Below are positions 1-35,439 of a stretch of DNA of 41,165 bases, one piece after another. A model generated the notes under the pieces. It ran no database searches. It had not been told where the DNA came from and saw nothing but the letters and a program-made list of their open reading frames with translations. Each line of letters starts with the position of its first letter. The stretch's first letter is position 1. The DNA is from Bacteroidota bacterium (GTDB taxonomy: Bacteria; Bacteroidota; Bacteroidia; Chitinophagales; Chitinophagaceae): NCBI GenBank assembly GCA_028876035.1, contig JAGWTK010000001.1, positions 1-41,165 of the forward strand. Reading direction: 5' to 3'. Made by a program: the position numbers and the translations under genes.

Positions 1-207
1 AATCGGCCATCAAGGCGTTTTGAAGCCAGAGTAGTTACAATGGAGGCAAACGCTTCGCCGTCACTGGGCCGGATAAAACAATTTGCGCGGGAAGGCTATG
101 GAAACCTAAAGTTACCCATAGCAACAAGCTGCAGAACTCAAGCTAACTGATGATTTGGCAGGGAGTTACACAGGGAGAACTTTTAAACTATTAAACCCTT
201 AAACTTT

Positions 208-636
208 TCAACTGCTATGATCCGCTACAATCTTCCACTTGCCTGCAATCTTGCGGAACAGCAGCGTATAGTGACCACTTAAATCACCCACTGTGCGTTT
301 TAGCATCCATTTACCCAGCACCCAGTAATAGTCGGACGAAAGTTTCTGCACTTTTATGATGTCAAAAAAGAGTTTTCCCATCTGTTCGGGACCATTGTAG
401 CTCTTCTTGTAATTTGCCAGCGTATTGGCATAACCGTAAGTAACCCCGTTCTTACCGATGAACATCAGCGAGTCGCTTTGCCAGTAACCCGACATAAACT
501 CCTCGAGGTTGCCTTTGTTCCAATACAGTGTTTGCTGGTTAAGAATTTCAATGATTTGTTTTTTATCATTGCCCGATTGCGCTGTAGCAGCGATTATTAC
601 CAGTGACGTAGCAATAAAGAGAAAAATTTTTTTCAT
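208..636 (-). CDS. secreted SnoaL-like / DUF4440 (NTF2-fold) protein
   Basis: ORF 208..702. The internal ATG at 636 gives a signal peptide, MKKIFLFIATSLVIIAATAQ. The body (YWNKGNLEEFMSGYW...GKWKIVADHSS) fits the NTF2-like DUF4440 pattern. The upstream 66 nt of the ORF are judged non-coding. Confidence 0.6.
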   Translation of the reverse strand: MKKIFLFIATSLVIIAATAQSGNDKKQIIEILNQQTLYWNKGNLEEFMSGYWQSDSLMFIGKNGVTYGYANTLANYKKSYNGPEQMGKLFFDIIKVQKLSSDYYWVLGKWMLKRTVGDLSGHYTLLFRKIAGKWKIVADHSS

Positions 637-728: not shown

Positions 729-764
729 AAAAAAAGGGTACCAGGTCTTGAACACCTGGTACCC
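729..764 (-). terminator. intrinsic terminator closing the GMC operon
   Basis: Perfect 11-bp stem gggtaccaggt (736-746) / acctggtaccc (754-764) with a 7-nt loop. An A-run at 729-735 becomes a T-tract on the minus strand. It lies 58 nt downstream of the small-subunit stop at 822. Confidence 0.7.
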
Positions 765-821
765 CAATGCAACCGGACAGTTATTGGCCGGCCGGCAGTA
801 TGAAGGCTATACGAAGTCTTA

Positions 822-1388
822 CTAAGTTGCCCAGGCTTTATCGCCTTTTTTGTAGTCGATACAACCCTCGTACTTTCCTGGAACTGCCACATAGCGCAGT
901 GCCTGGGTAGCCCCCTCTTTCGAGGTGAAATAACCGAAGAGGGTGAGCTGTTTCATCATCGTGAAATAGTGCGAAGGATCTTCCTTCTTCTTACTCTTCT
1001 GGTATTCCTTGGCTTCTTTATCGAGGGCTGTCAGGAACTTGGTTCGTTCTTCCGGCGTCGCTTCCATAAATGATTTGCCTGTTTCTTTCTTGCAGGCTTC
1101 GTCCAGTTTGGCAATGCCTTCGTGGAAGACTTTCTGATCGCCCTCTGTGTAGCAATCGTTCACCATCACGGTCATAAACTGGCCCACTTTTGCTGCTTTG
1201 GCACCCGGACTGCTGGTGGTGGGCAGGATAGTGTCCGCCACTTCATCCAGGAAGGCGGTGTCCTGGGCTGTGAATACCGCGCCGCCCACCGTTGGTTCAT
1301 TTTTACACCCGCTGAGCAGCAGTTCGCCGCCGATAACGGCACCGCCCGTAAGCACGGTAATCATTTTGAGAAGCTCTCTTCTGTCCAT
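822..1388 (-). CDS. gluconate 2-dehydrogenase subunit 3 family protein (TAT-signal lipoprotein, putative hitch-hiker small subunit of an FAD dehydrogenase complex)
   Basis: 188 aa. The N-terminus MDRRELLKMITVLTGGAVIGGELLLSGC has a twin-arginine motif plus an LSGC lipobox. It sits 19 nt downstream of the last GMC gene on the same strand. Size and placement are typical of the small subunit of GMC/FAD dehydrogenase complexes. Confidence 0.85.
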   Translation of the reverse strand: MDRRELLKMITVLTGGAVIGGELLLSGCKNEPTVGGAVFTAQDTAFLDEVADTILPTTSSPGAKAAKVGQFMTVMVNDCYTEGDQKVFHEGIAKLDEACKKETGKSFMEATPEERTKFLTALDKEAKEYQKSKKKEDPSHYFTMMKQLTLFGYFTSKEGATQALRYVAVPGKYEGCIDYKKGDKAWAT

Positions 1389-1407: not shown

Positions 1408-3135
1408 TTACAAGTTACCTTTTTTTAATTCATCCACCGCATGATTGGCGGCCCTTGCGGTGAGCGCCATAAATGTAAGCGATGGATTTTGCGTACCCGT
1501 CGACACCATGCAGGCGCCGTCGGTCACAAACACATTGCTGCAGCTGTGCAACTGGTTCCATTTGTTCAGCAGGGAGGTCTTGGGGTCCTTGCCCATTCTT
1601 ACGCCGCCCATCTCGTGTATATCGTTCCCGGGCCTGCGTCCATTATCGAATGCATTGATATTTTTACATCCGGCTGCTTCCAGCATTTCGGAACCTTGTT
1701 GCAGAAAGTCTTTCAACAGTTTTTCATCATTCGCATCATAGTCCACGTTGGCTACCAGCAAAGGAACACCCCAGTCATCTTTCTTATCCTTACTCAGCTT
1801 AACTTCATTTGATGCTTTCGGAATGGTTTCGCCCTGCATCATCATAAACACATTCCAGTAAGGTGCCGGTTCAGTTAAACTATCCTTCCAGGCGCCGCCG
1901 ATGCTGGCACCTTCCGAAGTATCACCCATGCGACCCCTGCCAGCACTGTAATGTACCATATAACCGCGTAAAAAGTCCATTTCCTGTTTGTAAACATTCC
2001 GGAAATTGGGCATCATCACAGCGGTGGGTCTCCTCCCATAATCAATCTTATCTTCAAAGCCTTCGATACTGGCGTTGATGTTTCCCCGGTAGTTATGGAA
2101 GGCGATATATTTACCCAGCAAGCCGTTATCGTTACCCAGTCCGTTTGGAAAGCGGTTCGACACCGAGTTCAGCAATACCAGGTTACTGTTCAAACATGCT
2201 GCATTCACAAAAATGATCCGGGCATAATACTCGAGCTCCTGTTTGCTGTGGGCATCTATCACCTTTACTCCAATCGCCTTATTTGTTTTCTCATCATACA
2301 TGATCGAATGCACCACGGAATCTGGTCGCAATGTGAGGTTACCCGTTTTGAACGCCCAGGGCAATGTTGACGAGTTGCTGCTGAAATAGCCGCCGAACGG
2401 GCATCCCCGGTAACAGATATTCCTGGCCTGGCACTGCCCGCGGCCCTGCTGCAAATGCACATCATTGGGTTTGGTCAGATGTGCGCACCTGCCCTGCACC
2501 ACATAGCGATCTTTATACTTTGCCAGGATTTTTTCCTGGATATGTTTCTCCGGACAATTCATTTCCCAGGGCGGCAAAAACTCACCATCGGGTAAGGTTT
2601 CTACGCCGTCTTTATTGCCACTAATGCCTGCGAACTTCTCCACATGACTGTACCAGGGTGCCAGGTCTTCGTAACGAATGGGCCAGTCAACCGCGAAACC
2701 ATCTCGGGCCGGACCTTCAAAATCATATTTACTCCAGCGCTGTGTTTGCCGTGCCCAAATCAAAGATTTTCCGCCTACCTGGTAGCCACGAATCCAATCA
2801 AAAGGTTTTTCCTGTATGTAGGGGTGTTCTTTGTCTTTCACGAAAAAATGCTGTGTAGCCTCATCAAACGCATAACAGCTATCAGCAATCGGGTTCTCCT
2901 GCGAAAGTTTTGTCGTGAGCCTTGTGCGATGCGGAAACTCCCAGATATCCATCGTAGTTGTTGGATAATCTTTGATATGCTTTACGTCGCGCCCACGTTC
3001 CAATACCAGGGTCTTCAATCCATGATCACACAATTCTTTGGCCGCCCAGCCGCCGCTGATCCCCGATCCGATCACGATCGCATCGTAGGTATTTTGCGCT
3101 TTTGCGCGGTTGTTGATATGTAACGAATCGGCCAT
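1408..3135 (-). CDS. GMC-family FAD dehydrogenase catalytic subunit, paralog 1 (most divergent)
   Basis: 575 aa. Starts MADSLHINN. Carries the FAD motif YDAIVIGSGISGGWAAKEL, the Cys motif CQARNICYRGCPFGGYF, and the C-terminal GMC region DIHEMGGVRMG...VFVTDGA...ELKKGNL. No signal peptide. Confidence 0.9.
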   Translation of the reverse strand: MADSLHINNRAKAQNTYDAIVIGSGISGGWAAKELCDHGLKTLVLERGRDVKHIKDYPTTTMDIWEFPHRTRLTTKLSQENPIADSCYAFDEATQHFFVKDKEHPYIQEKPFDWIRGYQVGGKSLIWARQTQRWSKYDFEGPARDGFAVDWPIRYEDLAPWYSHVEKFAGISGNKDGVETLPDGEFLPPWEMNCPEKHIQEKILAKYKDRYVVQGRCAHLTKPNDVHLQQGRGQCQARNICYRGCPFGGYFSSNSSTLPWAFKTGNLTLRPDSVVHSIMYDEKTNKAIGVKVIDAHSKQELEYYARIIFVNAACLNSNLVLLNSVSNRFPNGLGNDNGLLGKYIAFHNYRGNINASIEGFEDKIDYGRRPTAVMMPNFRNVYKQEMDFLRGYMVHYSAGRGRMGDTSEGASIGGAWKDSLTEPAPYWNVFMMMQGETIPKASNEVKLSKDKKDDWGVPLLVANVDYDANDEKLLKDFLQQGSEMLEAAGCKNINAFDNGRRPGNDIHEMGGVRMGKDPKTSLLNKWNQLHSCSNVFVTDGACMVSTGTQNPSLTFMALTARAANHAVDELKKGNL

Positions 3136-3219
3136 TGGCTTTTGGCAGTTGGCTTTTGGCTTGTTTCAGTGATTAATTCGTGTCTGGTTGCAAAAGGCTA
3201 ATAGCTAACAGCCAACAGC
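3136..3219. repeat. phase-locked degenerate heptad array (12 units) filling the GMC1/GMC2 spacer
   Basis: tggcttt|tggcagt|tggcttt|tggcttg|tttcagt|gattaat|tcgtgtc|tggttgc|aaaaggc|taatagc|taacagc|caacagc. The outer arms are imperfect reverse complements. Confidence 0.8.
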
Positions 3220-3222
3220 TTT

Positions 3223-4932
3223 TTACAGGTTTCCTTTCTTCAACTCGCTTACCGCAAAATCAGCGGCTCTTGCAGTAAGCGCCATATACGTTATTGATGG
3301 ATTCTGGCAGGCAGATGAAGCCATGCAGGCACCATCGGTGATGAATACATTTTTAGCATCGTGCACCTGGTTGTGGCCATTGAGCACCGATGTTTTTGGA
3401 TCCTTACCCATGCGGGCTGTTCCCATTTCATGGATACAGAAACCGGGTGCCGGCGCAGCGTCGTAGGTTGAAATATTTTTCAAACCAGCTTTCTCCAGCA
3501 TTTCGGCGGCACTGTTCATCATATCCTTGCGCATCGCTTTTTCATTTTCTTTGAACTCGCAGTCGATCACCAGCGTGGGCAGTCCCCATTTGTCTTTTTT
3601 GTTTTTATCGAGCGTTACGGTATTCTCATAATACGGAAGGTGTTCTCCCCAGGAGCCAATTCCGAATGTCCAGTTGCCTGGTTCGGTAAGTGAATCTTTA
3701 TAGGCTGCTCCCAAACCTTCTTCGATAGAAATTCTTCCTCTTGCAGCACCCCCCTGGTAACCAAACCCGCGTACATACTCTTTTTGTCTCGTAGCAGCGC
3801 TGATATTACGAAAGCGGGGAATATAAATTCCATTGGGCCGGCGACCGTAGGTGTATTTATCGGCAAACTCGTCTGACTCACCGTTCGCCCCTACGCCATA
3901 ATGATGATCCATCAGGTTATGTCCTACCTGTCCGCTGCTATTGCCAAACCCATTTGGAAATACATCCGATACTGAGCTTAATAGAATATGCGTTGTTCCG
4001 AGAGTAGATGCATTGATGAAAACTATCTTCGCGTAATACTCTTCGGTCTTCATGGTTTCCGAATCGAGTATGCGAACGCCTTTTGCCTTCTTCGTGTCTT
4101 TATCATACAATACTTCCAGCACAATCGAAAACGGACGCAGTGTTAGGTTACCTGTTTTCCTGGCAGCCGGTAAGGTAGCAGAGTTACTGCTGAAATAACC
4201 ACCAAAGGGGCAACCCTCGTGGCATTTGCTCCTGAACTGACAGGGACCACGTTCACCAAGCCTGGCCGTATGATTCGCAGATCGACCGATGATCATACGC
4301 CGGCCGTCTTTGAAACTTTTTTGAATTCTTTCTGCCACCTGCTTCTCCAGGCAGTTCATTTCCATCGCTGGCAGGTATTTTCCATCGGGCAGTTGCGGCA
4401 AATTCTCAATCGAGCCGCTGATGCCAACAAAGGGTTCTACATAATCATACCAGGGCGCAATGTCCTTGTAACGTATGGGCCAGTCAACACCGTGGCCGTC
4501 TTTTGCATTTGCTTCAAAATCGATATCGCTCCAGCGGTAACACTGGCGGCCCCAGGTTAAGCTTCTTCCGCCTACATGGTTACCCCTTACCCAATCGAAA
4601 GGCTTTACCTGTGTGTAGGGATTTTCTACGTCGTTCACAAAGAAATGCTTCGACACTTCGTTAAAGGCATAGCATTTACTTTGGATCGGACTTTCTTCCT
4701 GCACTTTCTTGCTTAAACTACCATGGTGATCCAATTCCCAGGGGTCTTTGTTAGTTCCTGTATAATCTTTCACATGCACTACATCTCTTCCTCTTTCCAA
4801 TACAAGCGTCTTCAATCCCTTTTCGCAAAGCTCTTTTGCCGCCCAGCCTCCGCTGATGCCGCTGCCAACAACGATCGCATCGTAGGTATTTTGTGTGATG
4901 GCTTTGTTGTTGATATTAAGTGAATCCCCCAT
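3223..4932 (-). CDS. GMC-family FAD dehydrogenase catalytic subunit, paralog 2
   Basis: 569 aa. Starts MGDSLNINN. Carries YDAIVVGSGISGGWAAKEL, CQFRSKCHEGCPFGGYF, and CIHEMGTARMG...VFITDGA...ELKKGNL. No signal peptide. Confidence 0.9.
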   Translation of the reverse strand: MGDSLNINNKAITQNTYDAIVVGSGISGGWAAKELCEKGLKTLVLERGRDVVHVKDYTGTNKDPWELDHHGSLSKKVQEESPIQSKCYAFNEVSKHFFVNDVENPYTQVKPFDWVRGNHVGGRSLTWGRQCYRWSDIDFEANAKDGHGVDWPIRYKDIAPWYDYVEPFVGISGSIENLPQLPDGKYLPAMEMNCLEKQVAERIQKSFKDGRRMIIGRSANHTARLGERGPCQFRSKCHEGCPFGGYFSSNSATLPAARKTGNLTLRPFSIVLEVLYDKDTKKAKGVRILDSETMKTEEYYAKIVFINASTLGTTHILLSSVSDVFPNGFGNSSGQVGHNLMDHHYGVGANGESDEFADKYTYGRRPNGIYIPRFRNISAATRQKEYVRGFGYQGGAARGRISIEEGLGAAYKDSLTEPGNWTFGIGSWGEHLPYYENTVTLDKNKKDKWGLPTLVIDCEFKENEKAMRKDMMNSAAEMLEKAGLKNISTYDAAPAPGFCIHEMGTARMGKDPKTSVLNGHNQVHDAKNVFITDGACMASSACQNPSITYMALTARAADFAVSELKKGNL

Positions 4933-4935
4933 GTT

Positions 4936-5005
4936 TAGTCGATAGTCTTTAGTCCGTAGTAGTTAGTCGTCAGCCTGTAGCTTGCAGCTTGCAGCCTGCG
5001 GCTAC
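4936..5005. repeat. phase-locked degenerate heptad array (10 units) filling the GMC2/GMC3 spacer
   Basis: tagtcga|tagtctt|tagtccg|tagtagt|tagtcgt|cagcctg|tagcttg|cagcttg|cagcctg|cggctac. It starts 4 nt from the GMC2 start codon and overlaps the GMC3 stop codon. Confidence 0.85.
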
Positions 5006-6714
5006 AAATTCCCTTTCTTCAACTCACCCACCGCATAATTCGCCGCCCTTGCCGTGAGCGCCATATAGGTAAGCGAAGGGTTAACGCAGGAGGCGGAGGT
5101 CATGCAGGCACCATCGGTTACAAATACATTTTTTGCATCCCATACCTGGTTGTGTTCATTGAGCACCGATGTTTTTGGATCGCGGCCCATGCGCGCACTG
5201 CCCATTTCGTGGATACCATCGCCGATCTCGTGACCAGTATCACGCGTTTTGATGTCTTTCACACCGGCGGCTTCCAGCATGGCGACTGCTTCGCTAACAA
5301 TATCTTTGCGCATCTTCAGTTCATTTTCCTGCAGCACTGCATCCATTGATAAAATGGGAAGCCCCCACTTATCTTTTCCTGTTTTATCCAAACTGATTTT
5401 ATTCTGGTGGTGCGGCAACACTTCGCCAAAACCACCGATATTCATTGTCCATGCACCAGGCTCCGTGAGCGCATCTTTGAATGCAGCGCCGATCGCCAGT
5501 TCTTCGACTGATCGGTTATAACCTTGTCTGGCTGCACCACCCTGGTAACCAAATCCACGCAGGTAGTCGCGTTTGTCGCCATTGATGTTTACGAACCGGG
5601 GAATATAGATACCGTTTGCGCGGCGACCATAATAGTATTTGTCTTCATAACCCTCTACCATGCCCGATGCACCGAGGTTATAGTGATGGTCCATGATATT
5701 GTGACCCAGTTCCCCGCTGCTGCTCCCTAAACCATCGGGCCAGATATCGGTGGCCGAATTCATCAATACCCAGGCACTGTTAAGGGCAGATGCATTCACG
5801 AAAACAATCTTCGAATAGAATTCGTAGGTCTTGTTGTTCTCTGCATCCATCACTTCTACACCCCTGGCTTTCTTCTTGTCTTTATCATACAGAATTTTCG
5901 ACACGATGCTCCAGGGACGGATAGTGAGATTACCCGTCGCCTTTGCCGCGGGCAAGGTAGAAGATTGCGTACTGAAATACCCGCCGAAGGGACATCCTTC
6001 CCAGCAACGGTTTCTGAACTGGCAATTGGTTCTGCCCTTATGCGGCACCGTTAGATTGGCCACACGGCCGATGATCATGTGTCGTTCGCCTTTCCACTTG
6101 TCTTTTATGCGCGCCGCTACATCCTTCTCCACACAAGTCATGTCCATCGGTGGCAGGAATTGACCATCGGGCAGGTGTTTGATGCCTTCCAGTGAGCCAC
6201 TCACACCAATATGCTTTTCTACATGATCATACCAGGGTGCAATGTCTTTATAACGGATGGGCCAATCGATTGCCCAGCCATCTTTTGCATTGGCTTCAAA
6301 GTCGAGATCACTCCAGCGATAGCTTTGCCTGCCCCATAAAATAGATCGACCACCCAACTGATAAGCGCGCCACCATTTAAAAGGTTTCTCTTCGTAATAA
6401 GGCGCTTCGCTGTCTTTCGCCCAATAGTTGATAATGGGCTCCGACTTACCCCAGGTGCGGGCAATCACCGGGCGATCTTTGAGATCTGCGAGCGGGGTTG
6501 TACCACGATGGGGAAAGTCCCAGGGATCTTTATTAGCCGATGCGTAATCTTTGACGTGCTCAAAATTGCGACCGCGTTCCAGCATCAGGACTTTTAATCC
6601 CTGTTCGCACAATTCTTTCGCTGCCCAACCACCACTGATACCCGAACCGATGACGATCGCATCGTAGGTTTGCTGCGTTGTAGCGCTGTTGTTGATATGG
6701 AGTGTGTCCGACAT
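5002..6714 (-). CDS. GMC-family FAD dehydrogenase catalytic subunit, paralog 3
   Basis: 570 aa. Starts MSDTLHINN. Carries YDAIVIGSGISGGWAAKEL, CQFRNRCWEGCPFGGYF, and GIHEMGSARMG...VFVTDGA...ELKKGNL. No signal peptide. Confidence 0.9.
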   Translation of the reverse strand: MSDTLHINNSATTQQTYDAIVIGSGISGGWAAKELCEQGLKVLMLERGRNFEHVKDYASANKDPWDFPHRGTTPLADLKDRPVIARTWGKSEPIINYWAKDSEAPYYEEKPFKWWRAYQLGGRSILWGRQSYRWSDLDFEANAKDGWAIDWPIRYKDIAPWYDHVEKHIGVSGSLEGIKHLPDGQFLPPMDMTCVEKDVAARIKDKWKGERHMIIGRVANLTVPHKGRTNCQFRNRCWEGCPFGGYFSTQSSTLPAAKATGNLTIRPWSIVSKILYDKDKKKARGVEVMDAENNKTYEFYSKIVFVNASALNSAWVLMNSATDIWPDGLGSSSGELGHNIMDHHYNLGASGMVEGYEDKYYYGRRANGIYIPRFVNINGDKRDYLRGFGYQGGAARQGYNRSVEELAIGAAFKDALTEPGAWTMNIGGFGEVLPHHQNKISLDKTGKDKWGLPILSMDAVLQENELKMRKDIVSEAVAMLEAAGVKDIKTRDTGHEIGDGIHEMGSARMGRDPKTSVLNEHNQVWDAKNVFVTDGACMTSASCVNPSLTYMALTARAANYAVGELKKGNL

Positions 6715-6812
6715 TGGCTTTTGGCTATTGGCTGTTAGCTTGTTTACGTTACAAATTCCTGTTTTTGTCTCCTACGGGCTAAGAGCCAACAGCTAATAGC
6801 CAACTGCTTCCT
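6715..6812. repeat. phase-locked degenerate heptad array (14 units) filling the GMC3/GMC4 spacer
   Basis: tggcttt|tggctat|tggctgt|tagcttg|...|gctaaga|gccaaca|gctaata|gccaact|gcttcct. The TGGCT-type arm and the AGCCA-type arm are imperfectly complementary. Confidence 0.8.
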
Positions 6813-8629
6813 CACAAATTGCCTTTCTTCAACTCTTCCACCGCATGATTCGCCGCTCTTGCAGTGAAAGCCATATAAGTAAGTGAAGGATTAACGCAAG
6901 AGGCAGAGGTCATGAATGATCCATCGGTAACGAATACATTCGGTGCATCCCATACCTGGTTCCATTTGTTGAGGACCGATGTTTTTGGATCGGCACCCAT
7001 ACGTGCAGAACCCATTTCGTGAATACCGCGACCAAGCGTACCATCACCTTCACGGCCTTTCACGTCTTTAACACCGGCGGCTTCCAGCATTTCGATGGCA
7101 TCGGCCACCATATCCTTGCGCATTTTCTTTTCGTTCTCTTTGTATTCAACATCCATCGCGAGTACAGGCAGACCCCATTTGTCGAGACGTTGTTTACCAT
7201 TTTTATCGGGAACCGGTTTGGTACCCAGGTCGAGACCAGTCACCGGATCTTTGTAAGGTTCAGTCTTATCGCCGTACAATTCTTTGTCGATGTACACGCG
7301 GTTCTCGTGGTATGGTAATGTTTCACCAAAGCCACCGATATTCATCGTCCAGGAGCCCGGTTCTGTGAGTGCATCTTTGAAAGCACCACCAATCACCAGT
7401 TCTTCCAGTGAACGGTTATAACCTTGCCGGCTCGCACCGCCCTGGTAGCCAAAGCCACGCAGGTAATCGCGTTTATCACCAAAGAAATTGCGGTAACGCG
7501 GAATGTAAATGCCATTCGCACGGCGACCGAAATAGTATTTGTCTTCGTATCCTTCCACACGACCCGCAGCGCCTACACCGAGGTGGTGGTCCATGATATT
7601 GTGACCGAGCTCACCACTGCTGCTACCCAATCCATCGGGCCAGATATCGGTAGCGGATTGCATCAGTATCCAGGCGCTGTTGAGGGTAGAGGCGTTCAGG
7701 AAAATGATCTTTGCGGTATAGGTATATGTCTTGTTGGTTTCTGCATCGAGTACTTCTACACCAGTTGCTTTTTTCTTGTCTTTGTCGTAGAGGATTTTAG
7801 TTACAATGCTCCAGGGGCGCAGCTTCAGGTTGCCCGTTGCCATGGCGGCCGGAAGGGTAGAAGACTGGGTGCTGAAATACGCACCGAACGGACAACCCAG
7901 CCAGCACTTGTTGCGGAACTGGCAATTGGTTCTTCCCTCATGCGGCACCGTTAGATTGGCGGTACGACCGATGATCATCGAACGATCCTTAAATTTTTCT
8001 TTGACACGCTTTGCTACATCCTTTTCTACGCAGTTCATATCCATCGGCGGAAGAAACTGTCCGTCGGGCAATTGCGGTAAGCCTTCTTTGGATCCACTGA
8101 TCCCGGCGAATTTCTCTGCATAATCGTACCAGGGTGCAATTTCTTTATAGCGAACGGGCCAGTCGATCCCAACACCTTCTTTGGCATTTGCTTCAAAGTC
8201 CCAGTCACTCAGGCGATAGCTCTGGCGACCCCACATGAGCGAACGACCGCCTACATGGTAACCCCGGAACCAGTCGAACCGTTTGATTTCGGTATACGGA
8301 CTGTCCTTATCGCTGCACCAGTAGTCGAGGTTGGTTTCATTGAGCGGATAATCGCGTTTCAACACGGGATAATCATGGATCATCTCCTGCGTACGTCCGC
8401 CCCTATGCGGGAACTCCCAGGGATCTTTGGTGGCATTCACGTAATCCTTCACGTGTTTGATATCTCGTCCGCGTTCCAGCATCAATACCTTCAGGCCTTT
8501 TTCGGTCAGCTCTTTTGCAGCCCAGCCGCCGCTGATACCGGATCCGATAACGATGGCATCGAAGCTGGTTTGCTCGGCAGCGTTGGTATTGATGTTAACT
8601 GGTTTCTGTAGGGAAGTATCTCCTGGCAT
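6812..8629 (-). CDS. GMC-family FAD dehydrogenase catalytic subunit, paralog 4 (long form with ~30-aa insertion)
   Basis: 605 aa. Carries FDAIVIGSGISGGWAAKEL, CQFRNKCWLGCPFGAYF and GIHEMGSARMG...VFVTDGS. It has an extra segment, ELYGDKTEPYKDPVTGLDLGTKPVPDKNGKQRL (about nt 7187-7282), that paralogs 1-3 lack. Confidence 0.9.
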   Translation of the reverse strand: MPGDTSLQKPVNINTNAAEQTSFDAIVIGSGISGGWAAKELTEKGLKVLMLERGRDIKHVKDYVNATKDPWEFPHRGGRTQEMIHDYPVLKRDYPLNETNLDYWCSDKDSPYTEIKRFDWFRGYHVGGRSLMWGRQSYRLSDWDFEANAKEGVGIDWPVRYKEIAPWYDYAEKFAGISGSKEGLPQLPDGQFLPPMDMNCVEKDVAKRVKEKFKDRSMIIGRTANLTVPHEGRTNCQFRNKCWLGCPFGAYFSTQSSTLPAAMATGNLKLRPWSIVTKILYDKDKKKATGVEVLDAETNKTYTYTAKIIFLNASTLNSAWILMQSATDIWPDGLGSSSGELGHNIMDHHLGVGAAGRVEGYEDKYYFGRRANGIYIPRYRNFFGDKRDYLRGFGYQGGASRQGYNRSLEELVIGGAFKDALTEPGSWTMNIGGFGETLPYHENRVYIDKELYGDKTEPYKDPVTGLDLGTKPVPDKNGKQRLDKWGLPVLAMDVEYKENEKKMRKDMVADAIEMLEAAGVKDVKGREGDGTLGRGIHEMGSARMGADPKTSVLNKWNQVWDAPNVFVTDGSFMTSASCVNPSLTYMAFTARAANHAVEELKKGNL

Positions 8630-8650
8630 AGTTATATTCTTTTAATCGTT

Positions 8651-8727
8651 ATTGCTATTGGCTATTGGCCATTGGCAATTAGCTATTGGCAAAAAGCTAA
8701 CAGCCAAATGCTAAAAGCTCACGGCTA
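8651..8727. repeat. phase-locked degenerate heptad array (11 units) in the GMC4/GMC5 spacer
   Basis: attgcta|ttggcta|ttggcca|ttggcaa|ttagcta|ttggcaa|aaagcta|acagcca|aatgcta|aaagctc|acggcta. It ends on the GMC5 stop codon. Confidence 0.85.
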
Positions 8728-10500
8728 CAAGTTTTGTTTCTTCAGCTCCTCCACTGCATAGTTCGCTGCACGTGCGGTAAACGCCATGTAGGTGAGGGAC
8801 GGGTTTTGGCAAGCAGCGGATGTCATGAAGGAACCATCGGTAACAAATACGTTGGGTGCATCCCACACCTGGTTCCATTTGTTCACTACAGATGTTTTTG
8901 GATCCGCACCCATGCGGGCAGAACCCATTTCATGGATACCACGGCCCAGGGTACCGTCGCCATCTGCACCGCGTACATTCTTCACGCCGGCAACAGTGAG
9001 CATCTCAATGGCATCATTGAGCATATCCTTGCGCATCTTCTTCTCGTTCTCTTTATATTCAACATCGAAGGCGAGTACAGGAAGTCCCCATTTATCGAGC
9101 CGCTGTTTTCCGTTCTTATCAGGAACAGGACGGCTTCCGAGATCCATACCCGTCACCGGGTCTTTGAATGGTTCGGTTTTATCGCCGTACAAGGTTTTGT
9201 CGAGATAGATGCGATTCTCATGGTAAGGCAATGTTTCACCGAAACCACCCATGCCCATACTCCATCCGCCGGGTTCTGTGAGTGCATCTTTGAACGCGCC
9301 GCCAATGTTGAATTCAGCAATGTCTTTGGACCAGCCTTCGCGGCTCGCACCGCCCTGGTAACCGAAGCCACGCAGGTAATCGCGTTTATCACCAAAGAGA
9401 TTGCGGTAGCGCGGGATATAAATGCCATTCGCGCGGCGACCGAAATAATATTTATCATCATAACCATCCACCGTACCACTGGCCCACACACCGAGGTGGT
9501 GATCCATGATATTATGACCGAGCTCGCCGCTGCTGCTACCCAAACCGTCGGGCCAGATATCGGTGGCCGATTGCATCAGTATCCAGGCGCTGTTCAGGGT
9601 AGAGGCGTTAAGGAATATGATCTTCGCGTTGTAGGTATAGGTCTTGTTATTCTCTGCGTCGAGCACTTCCACGCCCGTTGCTTTTTTCTTATCCTTATCG
9701 TAGAGAATTTTTGTAACGATGCTCCAGGGCCGAAGCGTAAGGTTGCCGGTTTTTTCTGCGGCGGGATAGGTAGAGGATTGTGTGCTGAAATAGGCACCAA
9801 ACGGACAACCCAGCCAGCATTTGTCGCGGTACTGGCAATTGGTTCTTCCCTCATGCGGCACCGTTAGATTGGCACTTCGTCCCATGATGATGCGGCGGAA
9901 CATTTTCGGATCGTAGTGGGCATTCATCCGTGCGGCCACATCTTTTTCCACGCAGTTCATTTCCATCGGCGGAAGAAATTGTCCGTCGGGCAACTGCGGC
10001 ATGCCCTCTTTTGAACCATTGATGCCGGCGAATTTCTCCACATAATCATACCAGGGCGCAATGTCTTTGTATCGGACGGGCCAGTCGATCGCCACGCCTT
10101 CTTTTGCATTCGCTTCAAAATCGAAATCACTCCAGCGATAGCTCTGTCGGCCCCACATCAGCGAACGGCCGCCTACATGGTAGCCACGGAACCAGTCGAA
10201 CCGTTTCACTTCGGTATACGGACTGTCTTTATCACTGCACCAATAGTCGAGATTGGTTTCATTGAGCGGGTAATCGCGTTTGAGTACCGGGTAATTTTTG
10301 ATCATTTCCTGCGTGCGCCCGCCCCGGTGCGGAAAATCCCAGGGATCCTTGTTCGCATTCACATAATCCTTTACGTGCTTAATGTCCCGGCCTCTTTCCA
10401 GCAACAGGGTTTTGAGGCCTTTCTCGCACAGTTCTTTTGCTGCCCATCCGCCACTGATTCCAGAGCCGATGACAATCGCGTCGTAGGTGTTATCTGCCAT
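8725..10500 (-). CDS. GMC-family FAD dehydrogenase catalytic subunit, paralog 5 (long form with insertion)
   Basis: The ORF extends to 10566, but its first 22 codons (MYLVLCTSYRAFQILNTRYYLT) translate the heptad repeat array. The ATG at 10500 gives MADNTYDAIVIGSGISGGWAAKEL, like the other paralogs. Also carries CQYRDKCWLGCPFGAYF and the same insertion as paralog 4 (TLYGDKTEPFKDPVTGMDLGSRPVPDKNGKQRL). Confidence 0.85.
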   Translation of the reverse strand: MADNTYDAIVIGSGISGGWAAKELCEKGLKTLLLERGRDIKHVKDYVNANKDPWDFPHRGGRTQEMIKNYPVLKRDYPLNETNLDYWCSDKDSPYTEVKRFDWFRGYHVGGRSLMWGRQSYRWSDFDFEANAKEGVAIDWPVRYKDIAPWYDYVEKFAGINGSKEGMPQLPDGQFLPPMEMNCVEKDVAARMNAHYDPKMFRRIIMGRSANLTVPHEGRTNCQYRDKCWLGCPFGAYFSTQSSTYPAAEKTGNLTLRPWSIVTKILYDKDKKKATGVEVLDAENNKTYTYNAKIIFLNASTLNSAWILMQSATDIWPDGLGSSSGELGHNIMDHHLGVWASGTVDGYDDKYYFGRRANGIYIPRYRNLFGDKRDYLRGFGYQGGASREGWSKDIAEFNIGGAFKDALTEPGGWSMGMGGFGETLPYHENRIYLDKTLYGDKTEPFKDPVTGMDLGSRPVPDKNGKQRLDKWGLPVLAFDVEYKENEKKMRKDMLNDAIEMLTVAGVKNVRGADGDGTLGRGIHEMGSARMGADPKTSVVNKWNQVWDAPNVFVTDGSFMTSAACQNPSLTYMAFTARAANYAVEELKKQNL

Positions 10501-10508
10501 AGTTAAAT

Positions 10509-10627
10509 AGTATCTGGTATTTAGTATCTGGAATGCCCGGTACGAAGTACAAAGTACCAAGTACAAAGACAGGAATTAAGTAGTACCAGGGGTTCTGCTA
10601 ATAGCTAACGGCCAAAAGCCAATTGCT
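10509..10627. repeat. phase-locked degenerate heptad array (17 units) in the GMC5/TIM-barrel spacer
   Basis: agtatct|ggtattt|agtatct|ggaatgc|ccggtac|gaagtac|aaagtac|caagtac|aaagaca|ggaatta|agtagta|ccagggg|ttctgct|aatagct|aacggcc|aaaagcc|aattgct. Confidence 0.8.
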
Positions 10628-10632
10628 TGTAC

Positions 10633-11526
10633 TCACACATCGCAGATCTTCACCGCCTGTTTCAGGGCAGCGATCTTTGCTTTATTGTCTTCGCCGGTAG
10701 GAATGAATTCCTGGGCAACATAGCCTTTGAAGCCGGTGTCGACGATGGCCTGCATGATGGCAGGGTAGTTGAGTTCTTGTTTTTCGTTGAGTTCATGACG
10801 ACCGGGTACTCCCGCCGTATGGTAGTGACCGATGTATGGGTGGTATTCCCGAATAGTGTGTATCACATCCCCTTCGTCGATCTGCATGTGATAGATATCG
10901 TACAGCAGTTTGAAGTTTTCTGAACCCGTGCGTTTGCAGAGTTCTACCCCCCAGGCCGTGCGATCGCACATATAATCCTTGTGATCAACTTTGCTGTTAA
11001 GCAATTCCATCTGGATCGTAATGCCGTTCTTTTCCGCCAGCGGAAGAATGCGTTTCAATCCTTCTGCGCAGTTTTTCAGTCCGGTCTCATCATCCATACC
11101 CCGGCGGTTACCACTGAAGCAGATCACATCTTTATAGCCGGCTTTTACCATCAGCGGTATCACTTCTTCGTAATCTTTGACCAGCTGGTCGTGGAAGTCT
11201 TTGTTATTGAAACCATCCACCAGGCTCACTTTACCGCCGTGGTAGCACATCGAGCTATAGATGCCGTATTGCTGCAGCATCGGCCAGTCTTTAGGTGCTA
11301 TTAAATCGATTGCACTAAATCCTATTTTTTTAACGTGCTTACACAGTTCTTCCAGGGAGATGAAGTTATAACACCACTGGCAAACCGAATGGTTAATGTT
11401 TCCTTTGAATTTCACGTTGGCGGCGTTTTCGCCCGCATAGGCAGCAGTCATGGAGGAGGCGCCCAGGGCGGCCGTTCCTGCAAGCATGGTCTTGAGTGCC
11501 TCGCGACGGTTATGTTTTGCTGGCAT
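10633..11526 (-). CDS. TAT-exported hydroxypyruvate-isomerase-like / xylose-isomerase-like TIM-barrel protein
   Basis: 297 aa. Twin-arginine signal MPAKHNRREALKTMLAGTAALGASSMTAAYA. The segment LLYDIYHMQIDEGDVIHTIREYHPYIGHYHTAGVPGRHE is typical of the Hyi/TIM-barrel family. Confidence 0.85.
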   Translation of the reverse strand: MPAKHNRREALKTMLAGTAALGASSMTAAYAGENAANVKFKGNINHSVCQWCYNFISLEELCKHVKKIGFSAIDLIAPKDWPMLQQYGIYSSMCYHGGKVSLVDGFNNKDFHDQLVKDYEEVIPLMVKAGYKDVICFSGNRRGMDDETGLKNCAEGLKRILPLAEKNGITIQMELLNSKVDHKDYMCDRTAWGVELCKRTGSENFKLLYDIYHMQIDEGDVIHTIREYHPYIGHYHTAGVPGRHELNEKQELNYPAIMQAIVDTGFKGYVAQEFIPTGEDNKAKIAALKQAVKICDV

Positions 11527-11562: not shown

Positions 11563-12786
11563 CTACACCGCTGGTGCAACTGATTTTTTTCTTTTGTAAA
11601 AGAAAAGGATGGCAAAAGCGACAGTAAGCACCAACGGGATCATTAAAGTAACATTAATAATTGCCTGACCTGCTTCTGCGGGTGTTTTGCTTGCCTGGAG
11701 TCTATCATAATAGCCACCCATAAAAATCAGGTAAAGCGATACGGCGAACATGCCCGCACCACCCATAAAATTAAGTCCAACCGCACCCGTTTCCGGTAAG
11801 TTTTCGGAGACGAATCCCAGCATGGTAGGCCAGAAATAACACACGCCCATTCCAAAGAAAATGGCGCCAACAAAGAGCATGTTACCGGTTGAATGACCGA
11901 GCAGGTACAAACCTATCGAAGCAAGGATAGCCGATGTTAACAGCACGCCGGCAGCCGACAAGCGGTGTACGATGGGACCTGCAAAAGCACGACCAATCAC
12001 CATAATACCTGTTTCAATGGTGAGCAGCAGCAATGCGTTATCAGTCACATTCTTCAGCAATACATCGATCCACTGACCAGTAAACAATTCAGTGATAGCC
12101 GTTCCAAGCATCAGCACAATCATCACAAGAAACAGCGGTTTCAGCAATGCCTTGTACATGTCGCCCGAGCTGATACCACTGGCTACTCTTTCTGTTACCG
12201 GGAATGCAAGCTTGTAGAACAGGTAACCGTATACCACGGTCGGAATCAACATCAATCCCACCAGGAAACGCCAGTTAGTAATAATTTTCGTAGCACCATC
12301 TGCCCCCATCGCTGTTTGGCCGAAGAAAGAAACGATCAATGTACCAATCACGATTCCACCAGGGAACCAAAGATGAAAATGGTTCAGCTTGGTGGTTTTA
12401 TTGGTTGTGTATAAACTAGCCACGAGTGGATTACAAGCTGCTTCTACCAGGCCATTGCCCATACCTATTAATAAAGTGGAAATGAACAAAGGCCAGAAAC
12501 CTTGCGCCGTAATCGTAAGTACAATACCCAGTGCATGAAATAGAAACGCCCCCACCAGCAATTTTTTCATTCCAATGATATCAACTACAAGTCCGCCTAT
12601 CACGATCGCCAGGGGGAAACCCCAGAAAGCCGTGCTGGTAATAACGCCAATTTGTTCCTGGTTGAGTGAAAACTGCTCTTTCCAGGTGGTAAGCAAACCC
12701 GCCCGGATACCAAAAGAAAGGGAAGTAACAAGTAATGAGGTACAGCTGGCAAAAAAGAGTTTGTCGCGCTGAATGGTAGCTTGCAT
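11563..12786 (-). CDS. MFS sugar transporter (fucose/glucose-galactose permease-like)
   Basis: 407 aa and highly hydrophobic, with about 12 predicted TM segments. It is the first gene of the minus-strand operon, 36 nt upstream of the TIM-barrel gene. Confidence 0.8.
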   Translation of the reverse strand: MQATIQRDKLFFASCTSLLVTSLSFGIRAGLLTTWKEQFSLNQEQIGVITSTAFWGFPLAIVIGGLVVDIIGMKKLLVGAFLFHALGIVLTITAQGFWPLFISTLLIGMGNGLVEAACNPLVASLYTTNKTTKLNHFHLWFPGGIVIGTLIVSFFGQTAMGADGATKIITNWRFLVGLMLIPTVVYGYLFYKLAFPVTERVASGISSGDMYKALLKPLFLVMIVLMLGTAITELFTGQWIDVLLKNVTDNALLLLTIETGIMVIGRAFAGPIVHRLSAAGVLLTSAILASIGLYLLGHSTGNMLFVGAIFFGMGVCYFWPTMLGFVSENLPETGAVGLNFMGGAGMFAVSLYLIFMGGYYDRLQASKTPAEAGQAIINVTLMIPLVLTVAFAILFFYKRKKSVAPAV

Positions 12787-14140: not shown

Positions 14141-14301
14141 GTTGTAAGTCGTAAGTAATAAGTTATAAGTCGTTTCGGCTATCAGGGGCGAGCGGTAAGA
14201 GGTTAGGGGCAATGGACGGGAAAGTGTTGAATTTTTACTTTTGACTTTCCGGTCTTTGTACTTTGTACTTGCTACTTTGTACCACATACCAAATACTAAA
14301 T
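14141..14301. repeat. phase-locked degenerate heptad array (23 units)
   Basis: It starts right after the Gfo stop codon: gttgtaa|gtcgtaa|gtaataa|gttataa|gtcgttt|cggctat|...|tttttac|ttttgac|tttccgg|tctttgt|actttgt|acttgct|actttgt|accacat|accaaat|actaaat. One phase is kept across 161 nt. Confidence 0.8.
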
Positions 14302-14361
14302 ACGTCTGCAGTGGCCGAAGACGAACTCATAAAAAAACACGCCCAGAATGCTCTTGATGCG

Positions 14362-15039
14362 ATGACGCATCCGGGCAAGAAGTGGACGCACAAACTAAAA
14401 GACATTTTACAGGAGATCCTGATCATTGTCTTTGCAGTGAGCGTTTCCATCTGGCTGCACGGTTGGTCGGAGGATCGAAAGGACCGGCGGGAAGAAAAAG
14501 AGTTCTTTGCAGGACTAAAACAGGATATCGAAGCCGATCTCACAGAAATGGAGAACGATCGCGCTGCATTGCGCCTGGTGCAGCAACATTGTATGTATTA
14601 TGGAATGGTGGGCAAGGGAAGACCTTTTCAGATAGATAGTGTGATGAACTATGCCTATATTTTCTTTACGCAGGCACAGATCAACCCGCGTATCAGCCGC
14701 TTTGAAGCATTGAAAGGCAGCGGACGCCTGGACATCATTGAGGACAAAAAGCTGTTGTATAACATTATCGACCTCTACCAGAAAATCTTTCCAACGATCT
14801 ACCGTTACAACCAGTCGTTCAACGAACTTAACAGCAACAAAATTGACCCCTACCTGGGCGATATGCTGCAGATTGACACCAGCGGCAATTTTCTGAACTC
14901 GATCGATATCCTTAAAACCTCAAGAATGCGCCTGCTGCTCAACCAGCTTTATTCCAATGCCGCCACCTGCGAAGGGGCGTATACCAAAGGCATTGAGAAG
15001 AGTAAAGAGATACTGGCTGGGATGAAGGAAAGTCATTAG
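14362..15039 (+). CDS. hypothetical N-terminally membrane-anchored protein (DUF6090-like architecture)
   Basis: The ORF runs from 14263, but codons 1-13 translate a heptad array. ATG 14362 gives MTHPGKKWTHKLKDILQEILIIVFAVSVSIWLHGW, a short basic N-terminus followed by one TM. GTG 14311 is an alternative start. There is no recognisable catalytic motif. Confidence 0.5.
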   Translation: MTHPGKKWTHKLKDILQEILIIVFAVSVSIWLHGWSEDRKDRREEKEFFAGLKQDIEADLTEMENDRAALRLVQQHCMYYGMVGKGRPFQIDSVMNYAYIFFTQAQINPRISRFEALKGSGRLDIIEDKKLLYNIIDLYQKIFPTIYRYNQSFNELNSNKIDPYLGDMLQIDTSGNFLNSIDILKTSRMRLLLNQLYSNAATCEGAYTKGIEKSKEILAGMKESH

Positions 15040-15178
15040 TCGTTAGTCGATAGTCTTTAGTCCAGAGTCATTAGTCCATAACCGGTAATCGATATTGAAC
15101 CATCATTAGTAAAAATCAAAAGCTAATGGCTAATGGCCAACAGCTAAGAGCCAATAGCCAATACCTAACAGCTAAAAA
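15032..15178. repeat. phase-locked degenerate heptad array (21 units)
   Basis: gtcatta|gtcgtta|gtcgata|gtcttta|gtccaga|gtcatta|gtccata|accggta|atcgata|...|ctaatgg|ctaatgg|ccaacag|ctaagag|ccaatag|ccaatac|ctaacag|ctaaaaa. It begins in the last codons of the upstream gene and ends 1 nt before ATG 15180. Confidence 0.85.
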
Positions 15179-15179
15179 T

Positions 15180-31123: not shown

Positions 31124-31744
31124 ATGTCTCTCGCCGATACCATAAAGTCGAACCCCGGGCTTAAGAAACTCAGCCTCTGGATGATTAGTTCCGGCAACGG
31201 CGTGCGCCCGCGCTGGTGGGTCCGCACTTTCGTAAATCCTTTCTATCACAAACGGGGCAAAAACACGCGTTTTTTTCGCAGGGCAAGAATCGATACCATG
31301 CCTTTCAACGTATTTGAAACGGGGAATGATGTGACCATTGAAGATTTCACATTTGTTAATAACGGTGTCGGACCGGTGAAAATTGGTGACGGTGCTTTTA
31401 TCGGTGCGATGAATGTAGTGATTGGGCCGGTTACCATTGGCAATCATGTTATGACCGCACAACATGTGGTCATGAGCGGGCTTAACCATGGATTCAGCGA
31501 TGTTACCGTTGCGTTCCGGTACCAACCCTGCACCACACATCCCATTTCAATTGGCGAAGGCACCTGGATCGGGGCAAACAGTGTTGTAACCGGCGGTGTA
31601 ACCATCGGCAAGTATTGCGTCATTGCTGCGGGCAGCGTAGTCACTAAAGACGTGCCTGACTATAGCATTGCCGCCGGCAACCCGGCGAGGGTGATTAAGC
31701 AGTTTAATCACGACACGAAGCAGTGGGAGCGAATAGGAATTTAA
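31124..31744 (+). CDS. hexapeptide-repeat (left-handed beta-helix) acyl/acetyltransferase
   Basis: 206 aa. Hexapeptide runs IGDGAFIGAMNVVIGPVTIGNHV and IGEGTWIGANSVVTGGVTIGKYCVIAAGSVVTKDVPDYSIAAGNPARVI. Confidence 0.8.
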   Translation: MSLADTIKSNPGLKKLSLWMISSGNGVRPRWWVRTFVNPFYHKRGKNTRFFRRARIDTMPFNVFETGNDVTIEDFTFVNNGVGPVKIGDGAFIGAMNVVIGPVTIGNHVMTAQHVVMSGLNHGFSDVTVAFRYQPCTTHPISIGEGTWIGANSVVTGGVTIGKYCVIAAGSVVTKDVPDYSIAAGNPARVIKQFNHDTKQWERIGI

Positions 31745-31793
31745 GATATAAGATATTTTGATTTGAGATATACAGGTATCGCTGATGGCTGAT
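31741..31793 (+). repeat. 53-bp element, left copy of an inverted pair (internally heptad-structured)
   Basis: ttaagatataagatattttgatttgagatatacaggtatcgctgatggctgat. It matches the reverse complement of 35386-35438 at 47 of 53 positions and overlaps the acetyltransferase stop codon (31742-31744). Confidence 0.85.
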
Positions 31794-31852: not shown

Positions 31853-31888
31853 CATCTGCACATCTGCACATTTACACATTTGCACATT
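31853..31888. repeat. octamer tandem repeat abutting the ArsC-family start codon
   Basis: catctgca|catctgca|catttaca|catttgca|catt, followed directly by ATG 31889. Confidence 0.8.
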
Positions 31889-35086: not shown

Positions 35087-35087
35087 G

Positions 35088-35438: not shown

Positions 35439-35439
35439 A

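Follow-up and report, generated by a model that had tools for sequence, protein, structure and literature searches.

Heptamer repeats of the short tandemly repeated repetitive (STRR) type have been known since 1990, when Mazel et al. reportedly described STRR1-3 with the units CCCCAGT, TTGGTCA and CAACAGT. Heptamers are also said to have been shown in 2007 to be the commonest class of long simple sequence repeats in bacteria. In cyanobacteria, hairpins built of 7-bp STRR repeats lie between hupS and hupL, where a role in transcript stability or translational coupling has been proposed (PMC2670836). A second study describes heptameric simple sequence repeats (SSRs) as over-represented in bacteria, with polymerase slippage as the hypothesised origin, and the heptamers of Xanthomonas and Nostoc as intergenic (pecE-pecF included), found in inverted pairs, and varying in length and sequence between close relatives (PMC4692102). 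Gaps of Gramella, Aequorivita and Elizabethkingia hold larger assemblages of ‘other heptamer direct repeats’, as MacGregor reported (PMC4679880). Here we describe arrays of degenerate heptanucleotide units in the intercistronic spacers of a minus-strand operon with five paralogous GMC oxidoreductase genes (GMC1 to GMC5), in a 41,165-nt stretch of a Chitinophagaceae genome (GCA_028876035.1, contig JAGWTK010000001.1, positions 1 to 41,165), referred to below as the window. The initial annotation of this DNA implied that such arrays lacked precedent, but intergenic heptamer arrays had already been described in all three of these sources (PMC2670836, PMC4692102, PMC4679880).

We think it fairly probable that these are STRR-like heptanucleotide arrays, that is, slippage-driven intergenic DNA which is copied and replaced, and which is filtered by the constraints of translation initiation. 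On this view they form a rapidly turning-over class spread through the whole genome, and are no device of the GMC operon. Near-identical strains differ in their arrays by the gain or loss of entire 7-nt units, spacers have been exchanged in full from strain to strain, and blocks are copied between distant gaps with the order of their variant units kept. In addition, the arrays sit at gene ends, in co-directional and convergent gaps, and are seldom seen in the promoter gaps of divergent genes. Because this anatomy and behaviour match those of the heptameric-repeat class, we regard the arrays as its Chitinophagaceae member. The arrays of the window are listed here, with z values for the lag-7 self-match and operon spacers named in the order of transcription.

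3135-3222, minus strand: spacer from GMC2 to GMC1 (z = 6.5)
4933-5005, minus strand: spacer from GMC3 to GMC2 (z = 7.7; fold z about 0)
6714-6811, minus strand: spacer from GMC4 to GMC3, hairpin-forming (z = 5.7)
8651-8727, minus strand: spacer from GMC5 to GMC4 (z = 7.2)
10509-10627, minus strand: spacer from the TIM-barrel gene to GMC5, three separate blocks (z = 6.0)
14141-14310, plus strand: spacer past a GFO/IDH/MocA gene (z = 7.9)
15031-15179, plus strand: gap array before a TIM-barrel gene (found by Tandem Repeats Finder (TRF) and at lag 7)
35087-35441, no strand assigned: convergent gap, periodicity weaker than in the other arrays (z = 4.3)
178-213, minus strand: block of AAAGTTT/AAGGGTTT units with a period of 7-8, past a DUF4440 gene and cut by the window edge

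Structure of the arrays and their predicted folding

The 7-nt period that the initial annotation reported for all five operon spacers was borne out. Lag-7 self-match in these spacers is 0.50-0.68 (z = 5.7-7.7 against shuffles), compared with a mean of 0.24 in coding windows of 90 nt, and TRF finds a period of 7 or 14 in every one of them, with 3-8 copies and a match of 73-93%. When the whole window was scanned in 49-nt windows, the only lags to reach 0.63 were 7, 14 and 21, and seven gaps of the window gave z = 5.7-7.9 for lag 7. The unit strings that had been quoted are indeed present in the sequence where they were placed. Contact with start and stop codons was also confirmed, TTGGC beginning at 3135 inside the GMC1 ATG, and the last unit of 4936-5005 overlapping the stop codon at 5002-5004.

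Spacers are built as mosaics, their blocks each holding 3-11 degenerate 7-mer units from the families TTRGCYN and its complement NRGCYAA, TAGTCNN, GTACNAA, AGTATYT, AAGTNNT and AAGATGT. A unit consists of a conserved core of 3-5 nt followed by 2-4 free positions, adjacent units agree at 4-6 of their seven positions, and the 7-nt step is constant across these differing sequences. A palindromic 4-nt core (RGCY, GTAC) was considered as a general feature and rejected, as many arrays in other genomes do not have one. Neighbouring units had been said to differ mainly by transitions; these do not form a majority (60 transitions, 69 transversions), but they are enriched, making up 46% of the differences between adjacent units against 31% expected from composition (p = 3e-4).

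The unit counts first proposed stand for two contiguous arrays, with 10 units in 4936-5005 and 11 in 8651-8727, and were inflated for the other three. The 4933-5005 array is a single contiguous run, five TAGTCNN units followed by five YRGCYTG units, and forms no hairpin. In 8651-8727 the 11 contiguous units keep one register while passing from the TTGGCTA type into the AAAGCTA type, and on the mRNA an A/U-rich leader of 29 nt lies between this array and the GMC4 AUG (8629). Read on the plus strand, 3135-3222 consists of four TTGGCTN units (3135-3163), an aperiodic core of ~30 nt and four RGCYAAN units (3190-3222); of the 12 units claimed for 3136-3219, only units 1-4 and 9-12 are periodic (5-6/7 identity to the next), units 4-8 sharing just 1-4/7 positions with the next unit. 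In mRNA order, this spacer presents a G/U-rich block past the stop codon and then an A/C-rich block up to the AUG. Similarly, 6714-6811 has four TTGGCTN units (6714-6744), an aperiodic core and four to five RGCYAAN units (6777-6811), so that in place of the 14 units claimed for 6715-6812 only the outer arms are periodic, the middle 30-40 nt being aperiodic. The 17 units claimed for 10509-10627 are instead three separate blocks with gaps, namely three AGTATYT units (10509-10529), four GTACNAA units (10537-10568) and four AGCYAAN units (10597-10627).

The spacers had also been described as each held in one phase. Without a core register this is uninformative, because any cutting into 7-mers satisfies it. 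Judged by the RGCY core, the register is indeed constant in the contiguous arrays 4936-5005 and 8651-8727, but 3136-3219 shows a shift of 3 nt (from 1 to 4) and 6715-6812 one of 5 nt (from 1 to 6). Phase locking between arms was rejected on the same shifts, together with 15 TTRGCY/RGCYAA hairpins from many sources, which span phases 0-6 and show an arm-to-arm phase of 0 in 4 of the 15.

The arrays had been framed as a property of the GMC operon or its paralogs, but the same unit families are present also at 14141-14310, 15031-15179, 35087-35441 and 178-213, and arrays of this kind occur elsewhere in Bacteroidota. The lag-7 scan delimits three of these further gaps as 14141-14361, 15040-15125 (reaching 15179) and 35087-35439, with z = 4.3-7.9. 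In total, nine gaps of the window carry arrays from at least six unit families, whereas the remaining 21, all divergent promoter gaps among them, have none. The 14141-14310 array contains five AAGTNNT units (14141-14174), TTGACTT, and then four CTTTGTA and three ATACNAA units (14254-14303). In 35087-35441 there are AAGATGT-type blocks (35092-35125 and 35218-35251) and their complements (35337-35373 and 35386-35441), and the 178-213 block is orthologous to an AAGGTTT array at 6768-6935 of the strain contig L084.

Some blocks share more than their type. An identical ordered series of variant units (tagtcga-tagtctt-tagtcc) occurs at 4937-4956 and 15045-15064, the 20-nt series tagtcgatagtctttagtcc being common to the 15031-15179 array and 4937-4956. 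Likewise, 10539-10575 is an inverted copy of 14247-14283, 86% complementary and with the adjoining ATAC-type block also in common, and the final composite block of 14141-14310 is homologous to 10505-10575 in the same transcript orientation. Judged from the sequence, such blocks are related by descent, beyond mere likeness of type.

The array before the plus-strand TIM-barrel gene begins, with seven TAGTCNN units (15031-15080), within the end of the upstream open reading frame (ORF), and continues through a loop into eight AGCYAAN units (15117-15179), which probably end at the true start codon, 15180. The first in-frame ATG of this gene, 15126, falls within the AGCYAAN array, and a start there would translate the array as an N-terminal extension of 18 residues (MANGQQLRANSQYLTAKN). 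ATG 15180 is the likely true start because the ortholog in L087, a relative assembled as a single 6.5-Mb contig, ERZ25039498 contig_103, has 351 aa as against 369 aa. Arrays of this kind thus mislead gene callers, and they will break short-read assemblies.

Long mismatched hairpins, with the 3′ arm reaching the next ATG, had been proposed for several spacers, and folding predictions agree. TTRGCYN/NRGCYAA pairs in several gaps are predicted to fold as long stems broken about every seventh base. The predicted folding free energy is −17.5 kcal/mol for the sense strand of 3136-3222 (−32.9 antisense), −32.9 kcal/mol for that of 6715-6811 (−41.4 antisense) and −23.2 kcal/mol for that of 8630-8724. 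The predicted hairpins of 3136-3222 and 6715-6811 begin 3-9 nt past the stop codon and reach to within 0-2 nt of the AUG, and predicted start accessibility is lowered to 0.41 for GMC1 and 0.26 for GMC3, the window mean being 0.59. The two blocks of a gap often being complementary, a long imperfect hairpin is predicted for ~60% of array-bearing gaps, and array-bearing gaps as a whole fold at −0.24 to −0.26 kcal/mol per nt, compared with −0.15 for shuffles. In contrast, 4933-5001 and 15040-15125 fold no better than shuffles, and ~40% of 29 Bacteroidota cases have no clear structure, in keeping with the original remark that the 7-nt period, and not the hairpin, is the common property.

The sense strand folds more weakly than the antisense in six of seven window gaps. 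In a set of 29 Bacteroidota gaps the sense strand is the more stable in 8 and the antisense in 21; in an independent set the figures are 20 and 19. Strand-specific selection on the RNA was therefore rejected, the antisense bias having failed to recur, and with sense hairpins no more stable than their antisense counterparts, a G-U signature of optimisation at the RNA level is missing. No terminator-like match was found on the sense (minus) strand inside the GMC spacers. A canonical terminator role was rejected as well, the stems having no U-tract after them on the sense strand and the operon having its own terminator at 765-735.

Turnover between strains, placement and polarity

The closest comparison is with a contig from an activated-sludge metagenome (L001), to which the window is 98.9% identical. 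Over 20.9 kb (1.1% diverged), a single exact 7-nt unit of the array between GMC3 and GMC2 (4933-5001) is the sole indel of more than one base. The contigs L085 and L086 carry a different one-unit deletion in the same array and L084 has extra units. Variation of unit number in orthologous spacers, which had been put forward as a check for slippage, was thus found, with two distinct exact 7-nt alleles at 4933-5001 among strains 97-99% identical and the polymorphism placed at window positions 4972-4978. The GMC4 to GMC3 spacer has been replaced wholesale in L084, L085 and L086, where it cannot be aligned despite flanks 96-99% identical. Its versions measure 97 nt (UUGGCUN), 80 nt (ten AGCUNNN units) and 67 nt (GGCUACA/AGCUUGC), and each of them keeps a GC every 7 nt.

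At greater distance, in L087 (~78% DNA identity), each of the five orthologous spacers bears TTAGCTN/NAGCTAA hairpin arrays, and other heptamer arrays lie near the operon; the flanking gaps of L084 likewise hold heptamer arrays. In L004 and L012, by contrast, the spacers between GMC genes are just 10-22 nt long, and L004 is as close to the window as the array-rich L087. The arrays are dispensable, since equally related genomes manage with such short spacers.

Point substitutions between the window and L001 number 3/783 in arrays, while 4-fold degenerate sites have 109/2784 (P = 3e-10). With 5/832, gaps lacking arrays are just as conserved. A related observation is that over window positions 627-21526 the 4-fold sites differ by 3.9% and intergenic DNA, with or without arrays, by 0.4-0.6%. 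Because divergence from L001 ranges from 0 to 3.9% per gene, a recombination mosaic is suggested.

A survey of Bacteroidota covering 1.37 Mb (the window and 81 other loci) gave 42 lag-7 arrays, whereas no other non-multiple lag exceeded 11 and shuffles gave 0, an excess over controls of the kind the initial annotation had proposed to look for. Of the 42, 39 are non-coding and 3 coding. By gap type, 30 lie between co-directional genes, 6 between convergent genes and 0 between divergent genes, where ~7 would be expected (P about 4e-4). Carriers are patchy and include Flavihumibacter, Sediminibacterium, Pelobium, Pedobacter, Flavitalea, Hymenobacter, Flavobacterium and a metagenome-assembled genome (MAG) of Lewinellaceae. 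The unit sequences vary from genome to genome, and many arrays are inverted pairs in which even irregular units are present in both arms. When metagenomes were scanned for a pattern of four TTRGCYN units, the matches listed included loci with G+C from 31% to 68%, cyanobacteria-like loci among them. Two of the matched contigs, L115 (701-865 and 9288-9402) and L090 (934-1081), also hold long (CCCTAAA)n arrays, CCCTAAA being the plant-type telomere repeat unit. In L090 these stand beside TTTATAG and AACTGTC heptamer families, in a cyanobacteria-like repeat cluster.

The arrays have a marked polarity. In co-directional array gaps, the 35 nt leading up to the start codon contain 44% A, 22% C and 8% G, while the 35 nt just past the stop codon contain 26% G. 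In 26 of 29 gaps it is the 3′ end that has more A and C (p = 7e-6); when the window and L087 are left out, this holds for 15 of 18. The asymmetry is 55:16 in an enlarged co-directional set and 6:5 in convergent gaps, and this absence from convergent gaps ties it to the downstream start codon and not to the hairpin. In 15 of 16 cases the TTRGCY arm comes ahead of the RGCYAA arm, and 17 of 21 strict stems have a GT-rich 5′ arm. An intrinsic rule of the form ‘G-rich arm first’ (for example, to avoid Rho) was rejected, as the polarity is gone in convergent gaps and the composition of the leader before the start codon explains it better. Bacteroidetes disregard the Shine-Dalgarno sequence in translation, which responds instead to mRNA structure and to the nucleotides upstream (PMC6847099), and an A/C-rich block ahead of the start fits this mode of initiation.

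Relation to known repeats and possible origins

Several properties place the arrays close to the heptameric SSR and STRR class. Their 7-nt units run head to tail in at least three copies, they are intergenic and occupy many loci in several unit families in the window and the 1.37 Mb, and unit number is polymorphic between strains (4933-5001). The near-perfect unit identity that defines SSRs and long SSRs (LSSRs) was not found, with TRF matches of 73-93%, and because the units are degenerate we call the arrays only ‘STRR-like’. Tandem 7-bp units, several families per genome, an intercistronic position and hairpins within an operon (hupS-hupL) are shared with STRRs, whereas the window arrays come from Chitinophagaceae and have other unit sequences, 70-85% unit identity and short mixed blocks. 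STRRs in the strict sense are not represented, as the window holds no CCCCAGT, TTGGTCA or CAACAGT doublets and its closest genomes are Chitinophagales/Chitinophagaceae. Also absent from the window are TAACTGA doublets and the heptamers GGGAATC and GGGGATT.

Heptameric LSSRs (GGGAATC in Xanthomonas, GGGGAYT in Nostoc) have in common with these arrays the period of 7, an intergenic or operonic location (pecE-pecF), inverted stem-loop potential and variability. They differ in being G-rich, near-perfect and quadruplex-forming, where the window arrays are A/T-rich, degenerate and not prone to form quadruplexes, with one or two G or C per unit. In addition, the polarity relative to the start codon found here is not described for LSSRs in the passages of PMC4692102 consulted. 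The TAACTGA repeats of Beggiatoaceae, Cyanobacteria and a few Bacteroidetes are likewise heptamer direct repeats lying a few nt upstream of start codons, but they have a single conserved forward unit, unlike the many families and frequent inverted pairs seen here.

The view that the arrays are not repetitive extragenic palindromes (REPs) or bacterial interspersed mosaic elements (BIMEs), MITEs (miniature inverted-repeat transposable elements) or clustered regularly interspaced short palindromic repeats (CRISPR) was upheld. An Rfam search gave 0 matches at the gathering threshold, with only chance-level matches (E = 0.4-0.8). Like REP/BIME sequences the arrays are short, imperfectly palindromic, dispersed and mosaic, and lie between co-directional or convergent genes in operons, but they lack a conserved REP sequence, GTAG head, fixed length and nearby REP-associated tyrosine transposase (RAYT), while REPs lack a tandem 7-nt substructure. 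Their arms vary in length and sequence, and no Y1 transposase is found among the window proteins. In respect of MITEs, the spacer versions measure 62, 69 and 75 nt or 67, 80 and 97 nt and have no duplicated flank. CRISPR loci would show repeats of 24-48 nt with unique spacers, which are absent from these contiguous 7-nt units, and the GMC-spacer arrays do not have the features of intrinsic terminators.

On the slippage-based reading, replication slippage favouring 7-nt steps, as in the published hypothesis for heptameric SSRs, would generate the period. Inverted arms could arise, and stay matched, by fold-back or template switching inside the hairpin. Selection would mainly filter placement and polarity, with promoters avoided and a G-poor, unstructured leader retained before the next start. 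The imperfect hairpin would bring stop and start codons together, and could protect segments of mRNA or couple the translation of cistrons; effects on coupling, start accessibility and mRNA stability are plausible as possible consequences.

Several points weigh against this reading. Point substitutions in arrays are ~10-fold rarer than at 4-fold sites, unlike what is expected of free-running junk, although non-array gaps are equally conserved and correction from arm to arm could also suppress divergence. TTRGCYN arrays are kept at five orthologous spacers of L087, which hints at maintenance. Slippage alone would account neither for mirrored arms nor for copying between loci 10 kb apart, those steps being inferred, and a preference for steps of 7 is an assumption of this reading. 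Finally, the genome-wide spread rests on 41 kb and the strain contigs.

A rival reading would make the arrays selected RNA elements of the polycistronic mRNA, whose stop-to-start hairpins couple cistrons, set the start accessibility of the paralogs, or stabilise or process the mRNA, the 7-nt repeat being only how such hairpins get built. The low rate of array substitution relative to 4-fold sites, the persistence of array position during sequence turnover in L084 and L087, and the polarity relative to the start codon are all consistent with it, as are the 3136-3222 and 6715-6811 hairpins from stop to AUG with their reduced predicted accessibility (0.41 and 0.26, mean 0.59); STRR hairpins have been credited with these same possible roles (PMC2670836). 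Nevertheless, equally related genomes manage with spacers of 10-22 nt, ~40% of array gaps, 4933-5001 included, are unfolded, and only two of the five GMC starts are predicted to be occluded. Sense strands are not the more stable (8:21 and 20:19) and carry no G-U signature, the stems have no sense-strand U-tract, and the canonical terminator lies elsewhere. We consider such selected elements unlikely, if deserving of serious attention.

Alternatively, the period might be set by a protein and not by the polymerase, the arrays being multivalent platforms for an abundant single-strand-binding protein with a footprint of ~7 nt. Candidates would include cold-shock proteins (Csp), the oligonucleotide-binding (OB) folds of ribosomal protein S1, a single-RRM Rbp, or a HutP-like ring reading NAG-N4. 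A constant 7-nt step despite very different units, the conserved core with free positions, and the low point substitution in arrays would suit such a platform. CspB binds as one protein per heptamer, and S1, Csp and CsrA have been proposed for the TAACTGA repeats (PMC4679880); RbpB binds G/U/A-rich single-stranded RNA given as a threefold motif repeat, and RRM sites are 5-8 nt (bioRxiv 10.1101/2021.04.27.441718), which also speak for it. However, because unrelated units occur within and between genomes, many proteins or almost no specificity would be needed. Moreover, half of the blocks are sequestered in stems, close relatives have no arrays, and there is no register between blocks. The crosslinking and immunoprecipitation (CLIP) paper on RbpB reports no motif resembling the window arrays. 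Overall we judge a protein platform quite improbable.

A bolder form, which we hold to be just as doubtful, would make the arrays an ‘operon punctuation’ code common to Bacteroidota and cyanobacteria, which an abundant protein covering 7 nt (of the Csp, S1 or single-RRM Rbp type) would read on single-stranded RNA. The protein would load on the A/C-rich block before the start, and the complementary G/U-rich block would gate loading through the hairpin. If this were so, the gain or loss of arrays and their unit number would set how strongly neighbouring cistrons, here those of five paralogous dehydrogenases, are expressed relative to each other. A tunable element of this sort would betray itself by little point divergence and a fast turnover of units.

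Slightly less credible again are small non-autonomous mobile elements, that is, REP/BIME- or MITE-like hairpins with a transposase encoded elsewhere. Mobility would explain why dispersed copies keep their variant order, why gaps are mosaic with a hairpin-forming inverted arrangement, how one spacer was replaced wholesale between strains, and why arrays ‘bloom’ in some genomes and are absent from relatives. Yet the arrays have no fixed length or ends and vary in size by 7-nt steps, they show no target-site duplications and replace the entire stop-to-start spacer, and they have no conserved GTAG/CTAC REP head. The unit sequence also changes from genome to genome, and the window has no Y1/RAYT-type transposase, its sole transposase being an rve-type insertion sequence (IS) with its own 24-nt ends. 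Chance or assembly artefact, for which one could cite short-read metagenome contigs and repeats prone to mis-assembly, is effectively refuted by the statistics (z = 5.7-7.9 per gap, 0 arrays among shuffled controls), by the recovery of the same spacers in ENA, Logan and JGI assemblies from different samples, and by similar arrays in cultured isolates of Pedobacter (such as P. suwonensis DSM 18130), Flavobacterium, Hymenobacter (such as sp. BT190) and Flavitalea (such as sp. BT771) and in the 6.5-Mb single contig of L087. The source samples are DRR046818, SRR34831217, SRR10823760 and JGI 3300028902.

The operon amounts to a compact natural experiment, with five array-filled spacers and strains that have other unit numbers or another array, in a lineage that starts translation without Shine-Dalgarno pairing. 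Because there is both a strain series and a set of relatives with plain spacers of 10-22 nt, slippage rates, polarity rules and effects on translation are testable here.

The operon and its surroundings

All five of the spacers studied belong to the minus-strand operon, whose genes were identified by Pfam. Protein P0001, identical to the GMC3 product of the window, was used as a stand-in for record look-up.

11563-12786, minus strand: MFS transporter
10633-11526, minus strand: xylose-isomerase-like TIM barrel
8725-10500, minus strand: GMC5 oxidoreductase paralog
6812-8629, minus strand: GMC4 oxidoreductase paralog
5002-6714, minus strand: GMC3 oxidoreductase paralog
3223-4932, minus strand: GMC2 oxidoreductase paralog
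1408-3135, minus strand: GMC1 oxidoreductase paralog
822-1388, minus strand: gluconate-2-dehydrogenase-subunit-3-like gene
735-765, minus strand: canonical terminator at the end of the GMC operon, with a GC-rich stem and U-tract in contrast to the arrays

The nearest genomes are Chitinophagales/Chitinophagaceae MAGs, at ~80% amino-acid identity, and a search of the window for tRNA and tmRNA genes found none. A Bacteroidetes-type −7 promoter motif, TAnnTTTG, lies at 14236-14243, between the AAGTNNT and CTTTGTA blocks and ~70 nt upstream of a GTG start at 14311. It is the only one in any array-bearing gap, the sense strand of the GMC spacers having none, and an internal promoter may lie in this gap.

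In the convergent gap, after a gene with a type IX secretion signal, there is a 106-nt direct repeat (35081-35186 and 35207-35312, 76% identical), both copies of which open with an AAGATGT-type block. An inverted repeat of 56 nt (31738-31793 and 35386-35441, 89% complementary), with the heptamer doublets TAAGATA and GCTGATG in its arms, surrounds a 3.6-kb segment with genes for an ArsC-family protein, a hypothetical protein and a PKD/CHU_C (type IX secretion) protein. Within this region, 31853-31888 is an A/C-rich, G-poor tandem array of period 8 (CATCTGCA/CATTTGCA, 4.5 copies), which stops exactly at the ArsC-family start codon (31889) with the same polarity as the heptamer arrays. At the far end of the window, an IS-like element (39842-41143) is bounded by perfect 24-nt inverted repeats (39842-39865 and 41120-41143) and contains a minus-strand ORF (39915-41063) with helix-turn-helix and rve integrase domains.

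Genes for sugar oxidation are dense across 822-30971. Besides the five GMC paralogs, compared with two to four in the stretches analysed of L004, L012 and L087, there are four xylose-isomerase-like TIM barrels, three 3-keto-disaccharide hydrolases and three GFO/IDH/MocA oxidoreductases, together with a ThuA-like gene and a cytochrome c. Homologues are named ‘glucoside 3-dehydrogenase catalytic subunit’ in one source, and the region looks like an expanded 3-keto-glycoside pathway locus.

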